Shown piece by piece: positions 6,271-44,833 of a DNA stretch of 64,000 nt. The stretch's first letter is position 1. Each line of letters begins with the position of its first letter. The position numbers and the translations under genes were made by a program. The notes beneath the pieces were generated by a model. It saw nothing but the letters and a program-made list of their open reading frames with translations. It did not search any database and was not told where the DNA came from. Source of the DNA: an uncultured Planctomycetia bacterium (lineage in GTDB: Bacteria; Omnitrophota; Gorgyraeia; Tantalellales; Tantalellaceae); assembly GCA_964451815.1 (NCBI GenBank), contig CAYVIW010000076.1, positions 6,210 through 70,209 on the forward strand. The letters run 5' to 3'.

Positions 6271-7524
6271 TCAGCCTTTTCCTGCCCGCTTTTTTCCGCT
6301 TTTCTTGCCGAGATCAAATGCTTTATGCACAGCGTTAACGGCTTTACTGGCAACCTTATCCTCTATTACACATGATATCTTGATCTCACTGGTAGAGATC
6401 ATCTCTATGTTGATCTTTTTGGAAGCGAGTGCCTTGAACATCCTGGCCGCTACACCTGAATGACTACGCATGCCTATTCCGACGACCGAAAGCTTGGCCA
6501 CTTTCCTGTTTACCTTAACCCCCTTAGCACCTATGCGACGGGCTATCGCTCTAACAACTTCCTCGGTCTTGACAAGGTCCTTTTTAGGCACGGTGAAAGA
6601 TATATCCGTGGCTCCGGTCCTTGAGATGTTCTGTACTATCATGTCTACATTTATATCGGCGCCCGCGAGATTCTCGAACAGCCTACTGGCCTCACCGGGC
6701 TTATCGGGAACATCGCACACGGTAATCTTGGCTTCGTCCTTGTTCACGGCGACTCCTCTCACCAGAACATCCTCCATACCCCTGACCTCCTTTGTGATGA
6801 CCGTCCCTTCTTCTCTGGAAATACTCGACCTTACATGCATTGGTACATTGAATTTGCTCGCTACTTCCATGCTTCTGGCCTGCATCACCTGCGCTCCTAA
6901 AGAGGCAAGCTCGAGCATCTCATCATAACTTATGGTCTGCAATTTTCGCGCTTCCTTGACAATACGCGGATCAGCCGTGTAAACGCCTTTTACGTCGGTA
7001 TATATCTCGCACAGCCCGGCTTTAAGTACCTTTGCCAGGGCCACCGCGGTCATATCAGAACCTCCCCGCCCAAGAGTGGTTATATCCTGGTCAAGATTGA
7101 CCCCCTGGAACCCGGCGACTATTACCACCTTGCCGGCATCAAGCTGCCGGCGTATTTTGCCGGTAGATATTTCTACTATCCTGGCTTTTGTATGGGAGGA
7201 ATCGGTCTTTATTCCGACCTGCGCGCCGGTAAGAGATATCGCCCCGACACCCAACCCGTTGAGCGCCATCGCCAGAAGGGCCACCGACATCTGTTCTCCC
7301 GTGGAAAGAAGCATGTCCAGTTCTCTTGCCGGGGGGTCCTTGCTTATTTTCATAGCCAGGTCCATAAGCTCGTCCGTAGTATCCCCCAGAGCCGAGACCA
7401 CCACCACAAGTTCATAGCCTTTTTTTCTGGTTTCAGCCACCCTGCGGGCAACACCCATTATGCGCCCGGTGTCAGCTACGCTGCTTCCGCCATATTTCTG
7501 GACTATTATACCTTTTTTCTTCAT
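6271..7524 (-). CDS. lysC: Aspartate kinase.
   Basis: KYGGSSV nucleotide-binding motif, amino-acid kinase fold and two C-terminal ACT domains. I place the start at the MKKKG ATG ending at 7524. Confidence 0.9.
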   Translation of the reverse strand: MKKKGIIVQKYGGSSVADTGRIMGVARRVAETRKKGYELVVVVSALGDTTDELMDLAMKISKDPPARELDMLLSTGEQMSVALLAMALNGLGVGAISLTGAQVGIKTDSSHTKARIVEISTGKIRRQLDAGKVVIVAGFQGVNLDQDITTLGRGGSDMTAVALAKVLKAGLCEIYTDVKGVYTADPRIVKEARKLQTISYDEMLELASLGAQVMQARSMEVASKFNVPMHVRSSISREEGTVITKEVRGMEDVLVRGVAVNKDEAKITVCDVPDKPGEASRLFENLAGADINVDMIVQNISRTGATDISFTVPKKDLVKTEEVVRAIARRIGAKGVKVNRKVAKLSVVGIGMRSHSGVAARMFKALASKKINIEMISTSEIKISCVIEDKVASKAVNAVHKAFDLGKKSGKKRAGKG

Positions 7525-7567
7525 ATATTCCTTTTTTAGCGGGCTTTTCACTTCCCCCGATTCAACT

Positions 7568-8773
7568 CTATTCCCCGTAATGTATAAGCATGCCCATAAG
7601 ATCGGAACCAGTCTTGATCCCCAGACTGCCTGCCTTAGCGGAAACTTCCGAAAAAACCGTGACCTCATCGGGAAGTATACCCTCGCCCGCCATGGCTACC
7701 GGTACCGGTTCTCCCGTATGGGTCCTTTTCTTTACGGGAGTCGGGTGGTCCGGTAATACCATTACCCTGTAGTCTGTGCCGGAATCGGTAAGCTCTTTGA
7801 TTATCTTACCGGCTATCTTACCGTCAAAATTCTCTATAGCCCTTATTTTTTCACGTATATCCCCGTTATGCCCCGCCTCGTCAGGAGCCTCAACATGCAC
7901 AAAGACCATATCGTCCTTTTCGAGAATATCAAGCGCGGCCTGAGCCTTGCCCTCGTAGTTGGTATCATAATATCCGGTCGCGCCGCGGACATCAGGCACC
8001 TGAAGACCCAGAATGCGGCCCAGGCCTTTTAAAAGATCCACGGCGGATATGATCCCCCCACTCACGCTATAGGCGTCCTCGAACTTCGGCATATCGGGCC
8101 GCTTCCCCTGGCCCCATAACCATATCATATTTGCCGGATTCTGTTTGAGATCTATGCGCACTTTATTTATATCGTTGTTCTCGAGGATGTCTTTTGACCT
8201 CTCCATTATCTGCACCAGTTCCGGAGACTTGGGAAAATGTTTTGATATGGATTTGTCAAGTAAATCGTGCGGAGGAAAACATTTTACATTGCTGAGATCG
8301 TCGGCTTCAGATCTGTCGGCGCATCGCACAACAAGAAGGTTCCGGTAACTTTTCCCGGCATAAAAATTGAATTTTTCACTCTCCAGCTCGCTCGACAAAA
8401 CGTCAACGAGAAAGGAACTCTCTTTTGTGGAAATATGTCCGGCGCTGTAGTCGACCATCTTGTCGTCGTGGCAGGTTATGGTATTGAACCTGAAGGCCAC
8501 ATCATTTTCACCCAGCTCCACTCCAAGATTAGCGGCTTCCAAGGGTCCCCGACCACAATAGTATTTCCTTGGGTCGTACCCCAGTATGGACAGATTAGCT
8601 ACATCGCTTGCCGGGGTCATTCCCTTTGGAACGTTCCTGGACAGACCCGTCACGCCTTTTCTGGCAATGGTATCCATGTTGGGAGTGTGAGCGACCTCCA
8701 TGCAAGTCCTGTCGTTAAGCTCTTCCAGCGGCAATCCCGCCATTCCGTCCGGAACAAGTACGATATACTTCAT
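7568..8773 (-). CDS. Cofactor-independent phosphoglycerate mutase (ApgM-type metalloenzyme) homologue; in this genomic context it is more likely a non-canonical homoserine kinase.
   Basis: 401 aa resembling the ApgM family (MKYIVLVPDGMAGLP…). It lies between lysC and thrC-hom, and no thrB is present in the window. Confidence 0.75.
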   Translation of the reverse strand: MKYIVLVPDGMAGLPLEELNDRTCMEVAHTPNMDTIARKGVTGLSRNVPKGMTPASDVANLSILGYDPRKYYCGRGPLEAANLGVELGENDVAFRFNTITCHDDKMVDYSAGHISTKESSFLVDVLSSELESEKFNFYAGKSYRNLLVVRCADRSEADDLSNVKCFPPHDLLDKSISKHFPKSPELVQIMERSKDILENNDINKVRIDLKQNPANMIWLWGQGKRPDMPKFEDAYSVSGGIISAVDLLKGLGRILGLQVPDVRGATGYYDTNYEGKAQAALDILEKDDMVFVHVEAPDEAGHNGDIREKIRAIENFDGKIAGKIIKELTDSGTDYRVMVLPDHPTPVKKRTHTGEPVPVAMAGEGILPDEVTVFSEVSAKAGSLGIKTGSDLMGMLIHYGE

Positions 8774-8790
8774 ATTAGTTGTCCTTGTTT

Positions 8791-9858
8791 TTATTCTAAG
8801 GCTGCTTCGTTCACCACCGCTTCGAGATCCGCGTCAACCACTACCGGAGGATCCAGGGTTTTTATGGCCCTGTCAGGATCCTTCAGTCCGTGACCGGTGA
8901 GCACACATACTATGTCGGTCTTTTGTTTGCTGTCCTTGACATCGTCAAAAAAACCTTCTCCCGATTTTTTAAGTATTCCAGCCACACTGGCCGCAGAAGC
9001 CGGTTCGGCGAATACCCCGCAGCCGGAAGCGAGAAGCCTGTACGCGTCTATTATCTCGTCGTCTGTAACCTTTTCGATTATACCTCCGGAGGTGTTCCTG
9101 GCCTCTTCCGCCTGTACCCAGCTGGCCGGATTACCTATTTTTATCGCGGTCGCAAGCGTCCGGGGGTCTTTGATGGGCCTGCCGTCAACGATCGGAGCGG
9201 AACCGGCGGCCTGAAAACCCAGCATTCTGGGAAGACCAGAGATCTTACCGGCATCTTTGTATTCCCGATACCCTTTCCAGTATGCCGTTATGTTACCCGC
9301 GTTCCCAACCGGCAGGGCGTGAAAAGCCGGCGCGTGAGACAGCCTGTCGCATATTTCAAAAGCCCCGGTCTTCTGACCCTCTATTCTGTAAGGGTTGATA
9401 GAGTTGACAAGCGTAACAGGATATTTGTCTGTTATACTTCTTACTATCTCCAAGGCCTGATCGAAATTGCCCCTTATCGCTATAACCTTAGCTCCATGCA
9501 TCAGGGCCTGTGCGAGCTTGCCCAGAGCTATCGCCCCCTCGGGTATCACTACCAAGCACTTTATCCCGGCTATTGAGGCGTAGGCCGCCGCGGAAGCCGA
9601 AGTGTTGCCGGTTGAAGCACAGGCTATTGCCCTGGAACCCTTTTCAACGGCCTTGGAAACGGCCATCGTCATACCCCTGTCCTTGAAACTGCCGGTAGGG
9701 TTGAGCCCCTCGAACTTCAGCCAAACGTTCACTCCCGGCCCGATCTTCTCCGCGATACGGTCCGCTTTTATAAGGGGCGTATCCCCTTCCTCCAGAGAAA
9801 TAACCGGAGTATTGTCTCCCACAGGAAGGTATTCTCTATATCTTTCTATTACACCCAT
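8791..9858 (-). CDS. thrC: Threonine synthase.
   Basis: PLP-lysine motif GSFKDRG and an overall ThrC-like sequence. Confidence 0.9.
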
Positions 9859-9862
9859 ACCA

Positions 9863-11164
9863 CTATCCTTCTATTCGTATTGCCGCGGTCTTAGCGGTCA
9901 CCCATTCCATAGCGTCTATTTCGGATATCGCTTTTCTCATATCGCCTTCTTTGACCTTATGGGTCATTATTACCACGGGTACTGTTTCTCCCTCGTTCCT
10001 TTCCTCCTGTGATACATTGGCTATACTGATGTTGTTGGTGGAAAGAACAGTAGATATACCCGCAAGTACCCCCGGCTTGTCTATTACAGAGAACCTCAGA
10101 TAATAAGCCAGGCTTATCTCTTCCATGCTCCGTATGCCATTGCCGGAAGAAGCGTAATTCATCCTGTACGGCAGGGGGTTGTCGCTGCCGGAATAAGCCA
10201 CATGCTCCGCTATCTCAACTATATCGCCTATGATCGAGCTTGCAGTAGGTTCTTTTCCCGCTCCCTTCCCAAAAAGAAGCGATTCTCCGATAAGATCGCC
10301 CCTAACGTATATTGCGTTATCAGCTCCGCGTACGTCAGAAAGAAGATGTGAAGATCTCAGAAGCGTCGGGTGCACTCTCAGCTCTATGCCTTTGTCGGAC
10401 TCTTTGGCGACACCCAGAAGCTTGACGCCGTATCCCCATTTTTTAGCGTTCGCTATATCCTGAGGCTCTATCGAGGAAATACCCTCGGTATGAACATCGC
10501 TGGCGTATACTTCCTGTCCGAAACACAGAAGCGCCAGTATCGCCAGTTTGTGGGCACTGTCAGCGCCGCTTATATCAAGCTCCGGATCTTTTTCGGCTAT
10601 CCCTTTCTCCTGGGCTATTTTTAACGCCTCGTCAAAAGAAAGCCCCTTTTCCTCCATCATGGTCAGGATAAAATTAGTGGTACCGTTAAGTATGCCATAG
10701 ACAGTGCTTATCCTGTTGGCCACAAAACTCTCTCTCAGCGTACGGATTATGGGTACAGCCCCGCAGACACTGGCCTCGAAGTTGACAAAAAGTCCCTTCT
10801 CCGACGCGGAACCGAATATCTCCTTCCAGCTTTCCGAAAGCAGGGCCTTATTTGCTGTAACAACATGCTTGCCGCTTTCAATAGCTTCGAGTATCATGCT
10901 CCTGGCGGGCTCTATGCCCCCCGCAAGCTCGACTATGATATCTATCCCGTCGTCAAGAATAAGATCTTTATAGGACATTGTCTTGACCGTTCCGTCGCCG
11001 GCACATGTCCTTTCTAAAGCGTTCTTATCCTTGTCGCACAGCGCCCTGATAACAAGCGAAACCCCGGTTCTCTCAGCTATAAGCGCCCCATTGCGGTTTA
11101 TGGACTCAACCACTCCGCTGCCGACGGTACCCAGGCCTATTATACCGATACTAACGCTCTTCAT
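9863..11164 (-). CDS. hom: Homoserine dehydrogenase.
   Basis: NAD-binding GLGTVGSGV, a catalytic domain and a C-terminal ACT domain. The start is trimmed to MKSVSIG because the extended ORF would run through the tRNA. Confidence 0.9.
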
Positions 11165-11232: not shown

Positions 11233-11311
11233 TGGTCGGGACGGTGGGATTTGAACCCACGACCCCTAGTCCCCCAGACTAGTACGCTAAACCAGGCTGC
11301 GCCACGTCCCG
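11233..11311 (-). tRNA. tRNA-Pro with anticodon GGG and an encoded CCA tail.
   Basis: Folded by hand as a cloverleaf. The acceptor stem is CGGGACG/CGTCCCG and positions 8-9 are U8 and G9. The D stem is GCGC/GCGU and the anticodon stem CUAGU/ACUAG carries the loop CU-GGG-GG. The T arm is GUGGG-UUCAAAU-CCCAC, followed by discriminator A and CCA. Confidence 0.8.
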
Positions 11312-44228: not shown

Positions 44229-44239
44229 TTTTCCTCCCC

Positions 44240-44446
44240 CTATTTTCCGGCCTGTGAATTGCCTTCTATTATGCTTTTAAGATGCTCTATCTCTTCTTCA
44301 GTATATTCCCTGTAGCTGTTTATCGGATTGCGCCGAGGCTCAGGGAAGATGCCTTTCTTTTCATAGTTTATTACCGTACCCCGGTATATCCCGAGTATAT
44401 CGGCAACTTCCTGAACAGTATATTTTCTTGTTCCGTTAGCTATCAT
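44240..44446 (-). CDS. Small MerR-family helix-turn-helix DNA-binding protein.
   Basis: 68 aa; the segment YTVQEVADILGIYRGTVINYEKKGIFPEP…YTEEEIEHLKSI matches the MerR HTH pattern. It ends 11 nt before smc. Confidence 0.6.
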   Translation of the reverse strand: MIANGTRKYTVQEVADILGIYRGTVINYEKKGIFPEPRRNPINSYREYTEEEIEHLKSIIEGNSQAGK

Positions 44447-44833
44447 GATCCGGATTATAGTTTGATGACCTTTGTATATGTTTGAATGCCTTTGATTAAG
44501 TTTGTTAGAGTATATATGGCTTTGGTGTTCTTGTCAAGGTCTTAAGAAAAAAATATCACCGCTTTGGGATCCTCGCTAAGATCACTAAGACTAAAATCCT
44601 CTAATATAAGGGTATTCGGGTAAACAGCGGTATATTTTCGAGAGGCACCGTGAAGAGAGCAAGCATGGTCCCGCCCTGCGATATTATGACAATGGCGGGT
44701 TGCGGGCGGAACGTTGAGGACGATTTCCTCGCAAAATCGTACATCCCCTCGAGAATATACTGCTGTTTACCCTTGTTCTTTAGATAAGTAGTAAAATACC
44801 AAGGGACACTCATGGATCAAAGGGATAGTATCG

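Follow-up and report, generated by a model that had tools for sequence, protein, structure and literature searches.

Gene block and neighbourhood

Within the 64-kb window (i.e., the whole stretch of DNA that was analysed), hom, thrC, a homK (thrB2) candidate, lysC, cimA, and valS form a single compact co-directional block on the minus strand, as judged from open reading frame (ORF) coordinates, with hom as its first gene (Table 1). Protein identities were assigned using NCBIfam and Pfam profiles; for valS, the identical gene in L001 carries the tRNA-synt_1, Anticodon_1, and Val_tRNA-synt_C families. In the direction of transcription, the intergenic gaps amount to 4 nt (hom-thrC), 17 nt (thrC-homK), 43 nt (homK-lysC), and 13 nt (lysC-cimA). 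As the start of valS overlaps the stop of cimA by 4 nt, valS is probably co-transcribed with the cimA block. A scan of the minus strand from hom to valS detected no terminator-like sites, and a tRNA-Pro(GGG) gene situated 68 nt upstream of hom provides the 5′ boundary of the block.

Table 1. Features of the threonine-synthesis locus and its flanks (window coordinates, given in the direction of transcription for protein-coding genes)
Feature	Coordinates	Strand	Assignment and basis
tRNA-Pro(GGG)	11233-11311	minus	ARAGORN; Rfam RF00005, 59.7 bits
hom	11164-9863	minus	homoserine dehydrogenase with C-terminal ACT domain; NF004976, 494.7 bits; PF03447, PF00742, PF01842
thrC	9858-8791	minus	threonine synthase; TIGR00260, 316.7 bits (cut-off 167.1); PF00291
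homK/thrB2 candidate	8773-7568	minus	401 aa; PF10143 (PhosphMutase) and PF01676 (Metalloenzyme)
lysC/ask	7524-6271	minus	monofunctional aspartate kinase, two ACT domains; NF005155, 588.2 bits; PF00696
cimA	6257-4665	minus	citramalate synthase; TIGR00977, 734.9 bits (cut-off 450)
valS	4668-1978	minus	valyl-tRNA synthetase; ORF coordinates and families of the identical gene in L001

Automatic ORF calls begin too far upstream for two of these genes (lysC at 7668, hom at 11260), with the extended hom frame reaching into the tRNA-Pro(GGG) gene. The sequence GGAGAGG lies 5 nt ahead of the hom ATG at 11164, and AAAGGAA precedes the lysC ATG at 7524. It is sensible to prefer the locus limits of 6271 and 11164 that were given in an earlier note on this DNA. 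The same note had described the candidate as tightly packed between aspartate kinase and the thrC-hom pair, which the gaps and common strand bear out. It had also placed a citramalate synthase directly upstream; cimA does directly adjoin lysC, but on its downstream side with respect to transcription. Citramalate synthase affords a threonine-independent route to 2-oxobutanoate, and the block consequently couples threonine and isoleucine supply only loosely.

ThrC acts on O-phosphohomoserine, and the note had stated that the window contains no thrB. This was upheld by two types of search. A Pfam scan that took in every minus-strand ORF of 100 aa or longer (50 in total) and the single plus-strand gene, leaving stretches of no more than 605 bp each between them, returned no GHMP kinase, and E. 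coli ThrB queried against the 64-kb window via phmmer (--max) and tblastn gave a best E-value of 0.57. The same Pfam scan detected neither a second phosphoglycerate mutase (PGM) gene in the window nor cobD or any other aminotransferase gene in the block or window.

Family assignment of the homK candidate

The product of the gene at 8773-7568 is an ApgM-family homologue, as had been proposed, and its best-scoring NCBIfam model is NF003242 (543.5 bits, cut-off 426), which bears the name of cofactor-independent PGM. It likewise surpasses the trusted cut-off of TIGR02535, a model named "proposed homoserine kinase" (527.3 bits versus 446.3, across residues 1-397 of 401), as well as the cut-off of TIGR00306 (512.7 bits versus 320). 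It fell short of two PGM equivalog models, NF003104 (329.6 bits versus 489) and NF003160 (214.4 versus 468). The PGM name of NF003242 does not decide the matter, since this model also takes the validated HomK protein BT2402 of Bacteroides thetaiotaomicron VPI-5482 with 582.5 bits; BT2402 attains 604.9 bits on TIGR02535. The score difference between TIGR02535 and TIGR00306 is +14.6 bits for the candidate and +94.5 bits for BT2402. This margin is an unreliable discriminator, as the Lys-bearing homologue P0145 displays +13.2 bits (another, P0137 from Pacearchaeota, displays −18.2 bits) and the validated DET_RS08350 of Dehalococcoides mccartyi is reported to be classed by TIGRFams under TIGR00306 rather than TIGR02535 (10.1101/2024.10.14.618325). 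HMM scores alone thus fail to separate the candidate from PGMs.

The existence of a family of non-orthologous homoserine kinases, to which the earlier note had pointed, is borne out by TIGR02535 and by published genetics. Mutants in BT2402 require threonine (GapMind 2020, PMC7311316), and ThrB2 and thrB show complementary occurrence across gut genomes (PMC9026213). An initial complementation attempt with BT2402 was negative, leaving open "another role in threonine synthesis" (PMC7311316); an E. coli thrB::kan strain was later rescued by both BT2402 and DET_RS08350, albeit weakly for BT2402 (an OD increase of 0.14 after 47 h) (GapMind 2026 preprint, 10.1101/2024.10.14.618325). At the position proposed to govern specificity, PGMs are reported to carry Lys nearly always; the role of the Glu found there in HomK was based on a predicted complex (10.1101/2024.10.14.618325).

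With the BT2402 sequence retrieved via its published cloning primer, alignment of the candidate (401 aa) with BT2402 (407 aa) revealed 41% identity over the full length. The key residues D9, S56, E295, D342, and H343 of the candidate match D9, S56, E299, D346, and H347 of BT2402, and its second metal site of D298, H302, and H352 matches D302, H306, and H356; relative to BT2402, the catalytic Ser56 and the seven other metal-site residues are all retained. Over residues 1-124, identity to DET_RS08350, of which an N-terminal portion was available, is 47%. Opposite E295, the solved PGMs 3kd8 and 2zkt carry Lys, as seen in the metal-motif segment (HVEAPDEAGH in the candidate, NIKATDVAGH in 3kd8, HFKPTDAAGH in 2zkt); the PGM-type Lys ahead of the DxxGH metal motif (H-x-K-x-x-D) is accordingly absent from the candidate. 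Fold and catalytic machinery are those of ApgM, with a phmmer E-value of 1.5e-62 to 3kd8 and, for an AF2 model with a pLDDT of 92.3, Foldseek TM-scores of 0.81-0.87 to 2zkt.

Among Omnitrophota relatives with proteins 71%, 68%, and 64% identical to the candidate, the order hom-thrC-homK-lysC-cimA-valS is kept; the contig of the 64% relative stops after lysC, so there the order covers hom-thrC-homK-lysC. Across the Omnitrophota clade (n = 121), all eight key residues are invariant save for three gaps at D9, with Glu at the E295 position in every member (121/121). A wider set of 152 sequences, composed of the 150 top-ranking representatives from a 50% clustering together with the candidate and BT2402, has Glu at this site in 130. 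Sequence, key residues, fold, and the gene order kept among relatives together place the gene product in the HomK family. The locus fits the pattern suggested for it, from the TIGR02535 cut-off through the Ser, metal ligands, and Glu to the conserved hom/thrC adjacency. By its sequence, the product is an ordinary member of an already described enzyme family that replaces homoserine kinase.

Proposed reaction and competing readings

We consider it probable that this gene encodes HomK (ThrB2, TIGR02535) and that its product makes O-phosphohomoserine, the reaction being assigned on the analogy of BT2402 and DET_RS08350. The protein would be a two-metal enzyme of the alkaline phosphatase superfamily with an archaeal-type ApgM fold. 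In a ping-pong transfer, a donor would transiently phosphorylate Ser56, from which the phosphate would then move to the γ-hydroxyl of L-homoserine, with Glu295 (in place of the mutase Lys) suited to the amino group of homoserine. Homoserine would be supplied by Hom from the head of the block and aspartyl phosphate by the aspartate kinase whose gene follows homK after 43 nt, and the resulting O-phospho-L-homoserine would pass to ThrC, encoded 17 nt upstream. In the view of the describing authors, who proposed phosphoserine or PEP, the donor for HomK is probably something other than ATP (10.1101/2024.10.14.618325). Of the "homoserine kinase" role put forward in the earlier note, homoserine phosphorylation would thus stand by analogy, with the enzyme probably acting as a phosphotransferase with a non-ATP donor rather than as an ATP kinase. 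To the identity of that donor, the locus itself gives no new clue.

The name given to such proteins by NCBI and JGI implies a genuine glycolytic ApgM-type PGM that by chance resides in a threonine operon. The ApgM fold with its full catalytic machinery, the passing of TIGR00306 and NF003242, the PGM name of all named homologues, and the want of another PGM gene in the window would each agree with this. However, opposite Glu295 the solved PGMs carry Lys, as PGMs are reported to do nearly always, the two equivalog models were failed, NF003242 also accepts BT2402, and the position between thrC and lysC is kept across the clade with no adjoining glycolytic gene; moreover, 64 kb is too short a stretch in which to expect the glycolytic PGM gene. 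We thus regard a purely glycolytic role as improbable. Still harder to credit is a bifunctional enzyme, with PGM activity alongside homoserine phosphotransfer from 2-PG, 3-PG, or a 2,3-BPG-like intermediate. The PGM catalytic core is complete, phosphoglycerate would be the most obvious donor by homology, the window again offers no other PGM, and one enzyme for two tasks might be an advantage in the small genomes of Omnitrophota; yet Glu in place of Lys would be expected to make anionic phosphoglycerate a less favourable substrate, and no feature of the window favours two activities. Furthermore, glycerate kinases do not preferentially co-occur with HomK (53% of HomK genomes versus 67% of ThrB genomes), and D. 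mccartyi possesses a separate PGM in addition to HomK (10.1101/2024.10.14.618325). It is similarly very doubtful that a HomK-type protein is the sole PGM homologue in small-genome Omnitrophota, drawing phosphate directly from glycolytic phosphoglycerate; were this so, threonine synthesis would be coupled to lower glycolysis without ATP.

A further reading holds that the protein acts on another amino-acid-like substrate (forming L-threonine O-3-phosphate, or handling phosphoserine) and is needed only indirectly for threonine synthesis. Glu-bearing homologues that adjoin cobD have indeed been proposed to form L-threonine O-3-phosphate (10.1101/2024.10.14.618325), and the negative BT2402 complementation of 2020 (PMC7311316) would be in keeping with an indirect role. 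Against this, thrB complementation by two family members was later reported, and cobD-linked proteins score higher on TIGR00306 than on TIGR02535 (10.1101/2024.10.14.618325), which the candidate does not. Neither block nor window holds cobD or another aminotransferase gene, and the conserved neighbours are precisely a producer of homoserine and a consumer of phosphohomoserine; we accordingly deem a different substrate most unlikely.

Assignment as homK is of practical value chiefly for annotation, as close homologues with a name in public databases are all called cofactor-independent phosphoglycerate mutase, likely because NF003242 bears the PGM name and captures BT2402. With such labels, metabolic reconstructions of Omnitrophota would wrongly show threonine synthesis as incomplete and might list a PGM that is not one. 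Treating the gene as homK closes the threonine-synthesis gap. The Omnitrophota clade also provides many natural sequence variants with which to approach the question of the phosphate donor of HomK.

Comparison with characterised systems

In both this locus and that of BT2402, thrC and a gene for homoserine dehydrogenase are co-directional neighbours of the homK gene. The arrangement here (hom-thrC-homK-lysC) differs from thrA-BT2402-thrC of B. thetaiotaomicron in that hom and ask are separate rather than fused as thrA, and in that homK follows thrC instead of preceding it. The phylum differs as well, since the closest homologues bear names that point to Candidatus Omnitrophota. With ApgM enzymes (TIGR00306; 2zkt from P. 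horikoshii, 3kd8/3idd from T. acidophilum), the candidate shares the same two-domain fold at about 34% identity, including the Ser nucleophile and Asp/His metal ligands; it is set apart from them by Glu295 in place of the Lys of both solved enzymes, by failure on NF003104 and NF003160, and by lying within a threonine operon and not in glycolytic surroundings.

Relative to canonical ThrB, a GHMP kinase (TIGR00191/PF00288), the proposed product O-phospho-L-homoserine and the slot adjoining thrC are the same, whereas sequence and fold are unrelated, with the candidate carrying only PF10143 and PF01676 and no GHMP domains. ThrB uses ATP; for HomK, a phospho-enzyme intermediate and a different donor have been predicted (10.1101/2024.10.14.618325). 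ThrH of Pseudomonas aeruginosa, a phosphoserine:homoserine phosphotransferase of the HAD superfamily, is likewise of unrelated fold and has been described as non-homologous to HomK; it nevertheless offers an earlier example of homoserine being phosphorylated without ATP, through phosphate transfer from a phospho-amino acid, and has been cited as an analogy for HomK (10.1101/2024.10.14.618325).

The threonine block and its surroundings

All genes of the hom-valS region lie on the minus strand (ORF listing), and the ApgM-like central gene, here called homK, is separated from thrC by 17 nt and from lysC by 43 nt. Spacers of 4 and 13 nt divide hom from thrC and lysC from cimA, respectively, and a 4-nt overlap joins cimA to valS. 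This bears out the tight packing described in the earlier note; the placement there of citramalate synthase "directly upstream" has the direction reversed, as cimA lies downstream of lysC by transcription. A consensus scan found no terminator-like site on the minus strand inside the hom-valS block, and Rfam at gathering thresholds returned tRNA only, with no regulatory RNA before hom or lysC. A lysine riboswitch between homK and lysC was considered and rejected, the 43-nt spacer being too short.

Features of the window, with coordinates in window positions
Feature	Coordinates	Strand	Remark
tRNA-Pro(GGG)	11311-11233	-	Rfam; 68 nt upstream of hom
hom, ACT-domain homoserine dehydrogenase	11164-9863	-	NF004976, 494.7 bits
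thrC, threonine synthase	9858-8791	-	TIGR00260, 316.7 bits
homK, ApgM-like central gene	8773-7568	-	NCBIfam and Pfam profiles
lysC, aspartate kinase	7524-6271	-	NF005155, 588.2 bits
cimA, citramalate synthase	6257-4665	-	TIGR00977, 734.9 bits
valS	4668-1978	-	ORF coordinates
trp operon, trpE-G-D-C-?-F-B-A	31076-23099		two tryptophan-synthase-beta-type PALP genes
PALP gene, 451 aa	25772-27127	-	inserted between trpC and trpF
PALP gene, 405 aa	23899-25116	-	usual one, before trpA
ORF, 2302 aa	55748-62656	-	sole Pfam match a central Ser/Thr protein kinase domain (residues 926-1204); ~2000 residues without annotation
ORF, 128 aa	12703-13089		between plsY and gpsA; no Pfam or NCBIfam match
ORF, 324 aa	62978-63952	-	no significant Pfam/NCBIfam match
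ORF, 520 aa	51298-52860	-	no significant Pfam/NCBIfam match; weak glycosylhydrolase family match (E = 7.6e-5), far under cut-off
ORF, 162 aa	50729-51217	-	no significant Pfam/NCBIfam match
605 bp between smc and etf genes	44229-44833		free of ORFs of 100 aa or more; nothing from Rfam (gathering thresholds)

The boundaries proposed earlier for the cluster (6271-11164) and for the central gene (7568-8773) proved correct, since the longest ORFs of hom and lysC are over-extended at the 5' end; that of hom (GTG at 11260, 465 aa) overlaps the tRNA-Pro(GGG) gene. For the identical contig, this over-long hom also appears in several public gene calls.

A Pfam scan covering all minus-strand ORFs of 100 aa or longer, plus the single plus-strand gene, detected neither a GHMP kinase nor a second phosphoglycerate mutase (PGM) in the 64-kb window. 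Searches with E. coli ThrB (from NC_000913.3), by phmmer --max against all six-frame ORFs and by tblastn, gave a best E-value of 0.57; window stretches without ORF coverage reach at most 605 bp. The claim that thrB is missing thus holds by both approaches for these 64 kb. Gene content here includes nadC, a pseudouridine synthase gene, gpsA, plsY, der, lepA, alaS, recA and smc, together with trp and his operons and etfAB with an acyl-CoA dehydrogenase gene.

The minus strand carries 50 of the 51 genes assigned in the window, and GC skew stays below zero in all 2-kb bins; this would fit a single long replichore segment with co-directional genes. Within the trp operon, the 451-aa PALP gene may encode a TrpB2-type paralogue. 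A family-less ORF of 116-128 aa also occupies the plsY/gpsA site in relatives of 68-71% identity, and gene calls of fetched contigs L001-L004 and L006 place a 37-aa ORF just downstream of the 128-aa ORF. Past the low-coordinate end of the window, the same contig from a JGI metagenome (L001, 20560-20931) carries, after uvrB, a gene for a 123-aa protein with a MamF_MmsF (magnetosome protein) domain.

Family assignment and profile scores

The central protein contains the Pfam domains PhosphMutase and Metalloenzyme and exceeds the cut-offs of (i) NF003242, "cofactor-independent phosphoglycerate mutase" (543.5 bits, cut-off 426), (ii) TIGR02535, "proposed homoserine kinase" (527.3 bits, cut-off 446.3), and (iii) TIGR00306, the apgM subfamily (512.7 bits, cut-off 320); it falls below the cut-offs of both PGM equivalogs NF003104 and NF003160. 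Its full-length matches among solved structures are archaeal-type PGMs only (3kd8/3idd, E = 1.5e-62; 2zkt, E = 8.3e-61), with bacterial iPGM, phosphopentomutase and alkaline phosphatase as more distant matches, and its AlphaFold2-predicted model (pLDDT 92.3) superposes on 2zkt with TM 0.81-0.87. Domains, TIGR00306 score and fold uphold the ApgM-family identity originally assigned to this product. To our knowledge, the HomK family has no solved structure.

HMM scores alone do not separate HomK from PGM. The margin of TIGR02535 over TIGR00306 is +14.6 bits for the central protein, +94.5 for BT2402 (the HomK member of B. thetaiotaomicron), and +13.2 and -18.2 for the Lys-bearing homologues P0145 and P0137; as Lys-bearing homologues give similar margins, this measure was dropped as a classifier. 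BT2402 is itself taken by the NF003242 equivalog, at 582.5 bits (cut-off 426), and the PGM name is therefore no evidence of mutase function. NF003242 is likely the source of that name on all Omnitrophota homologues, and family members would be uniformly mis-named across the phylum.

Conservation among relatives

The 120 closest database proteins share 64-92% identity with the central protein and, where named, are labelled "cofactor-independent phosphoglycerate mutase" from Candidatus Omnitrophota. Ser56, Glu295 (the proposed specificity position) and the other six key residues are kept in all 121 sequences (these and the central protein), save three gaps at D9. Across a wider set, made up of the best 150 representatives at 50% clustering, the central protein and BT2402, Glu occupies the E295 column in 130 of 152; Lys-bearing representatives number two, P0137 being from a Pacearchaeota archaeon. 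Relatives with 71% and 68% identity show the full hom-thrC-homK-lysC-cimA-valS order on their contigs, and the short contig of a 64%-identity relative shows hom-thrC-homK-lysC; the organism's own contig is present in several JGI metagenomes. A neighbour-joining tree of 146 sequences (outgroup 2zkt and 3kd8) placed the central protein and BT2402 among Glu-bearing sequences; being unbootstrapped and poorly rooted, it was set aside as evidence.

A minority of the 150 representatives lack catalytic residues (e.g., Ser/Thr/Glu at D9, Thr/Ala/Gly at S56, Leu/Arg at H302) and have A, D, N, G or H, not Glu, at position 295; these could be paralogues that are inactive or have another specialisation. 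Eight representatives of 974-1123 aa (P0135, P0136, P0138, P0156, P0166, P0167, P0202, P0226) begin with an intact HomK-type domain that keeps Glu and every catalytic residue, followed by a charged linker and C-terminal regions of ~600 aa that are homologous to each other; P0136, from a Clostridia MAG and the one read, adds a hydrophobic stretch resembling a membrane helix. These were rejected as Rosetta-stone clues to function, since they are unfused to threonine-pathway enzymes and their C-terminal parts have no Pfam match.

Proposed function and comparison with known HomK proteins

TIGR02535 was put forward by TIGRFams curators as a homoserine kinase replacement. B. thetaiotaomicron BT2402 mutants require threonine, and a first complementation attempt was unsuccessful (PMC7311316). 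The name ThrB2 comes from Ashniev et al., who showed in gut genomes that the family's occurrence complements that of thrB and that its genes co-localise with thrC, hom and asd (PMC9026213). A 2026 GapMind preprint then renamed it HomK, upon rescue of E. coli thrB::kan by BT2402 (weakly) and by the divergent DET_RS08350; identified catalytic Ser56 and metal ligands in BT2402; proposed Glu299 as a HomK mark, as against Lys, almost always, in PGMs, the role of Glu being read from a predicted complex; and argued for a donor other than ATP, and probably other than phosphoglycerate too, with phosphoserine suggested (10.1101/2024.10.14.618325). Our literature search for Omnitrophota and homoserine kinase found no paper. 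Among annotated genes adjoining the block, Pfam revealed no serA, serC, serB, glycerate kinase or PEP-related gene as a donor clue.

Homology, key residues, fold and conserved context support the homoserine kinase-type reading first suggested for this gene, from which we infer reaction and mechanism: with good confidence, the central protein is most likely a HomK-type homoserine phosphotransferase. Hom would supply homoserine; Ser56 of the two-divalent-metal enzyme would take phosphate from a donor and hand it to homoserine, whose amino group would lie near Glu295; and ThrC would convert O-phosphohomoserine to threonine. Aspartate kinase, co-encoded in the same transcription unit, would feed the pathway, and citramalate synthase, next in line, would open a threonine-independent route to isoleucine. 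A true PGM would agree with the NF003242 name and the archaeal-type structural matches, and is highly improbable with Glu in place of the Lys of PGMs. We hold two further readings, a bifunctional PGM/HomK and a phosphotransferase with some other amino-acid-like substrate, to be very unlikely as well.

Comparison with BT2402 favours the HomK-type assignment. BT2402 was located by the first 28 nt in the preprint's primer table, an exact search of species-representative genomes returning one B. thetaiotaomicron contig, on which the 407-aa ORF (L008:2050-3273) has precisely the 3' end predicted by the reverse primer and is flanked by thrA (an ask-hom fusion) and thrC. The preprint's second-metal ligands (D274, H278, H325) are N, E and V in the sequence fetched here; by homology alignment, they are D302, H306 and H356. 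Globally, BT2402 and the central protein are 41% identical, with D9, S56, E299, D302, H306, D346, H347 and H356 of the former aligned to D9, S56, E295, D298, H302, D342, H343 and H352 of the latter. The N-terminal 124 residues of DET_RS08350 (124 codons of gBlock text in the preprint's supplement) are 47% identical to the central protein, the Glu position lying outside the compared part. In contrast, the solved PGMs 3kd8 (NIKATDVAGH) and 2zkt (HFKPTDAAGH) have Lys opposite E295 of the central protein (HVEAPDEAGH), which, judged by its sequence, is an ordinary member of an already described family.
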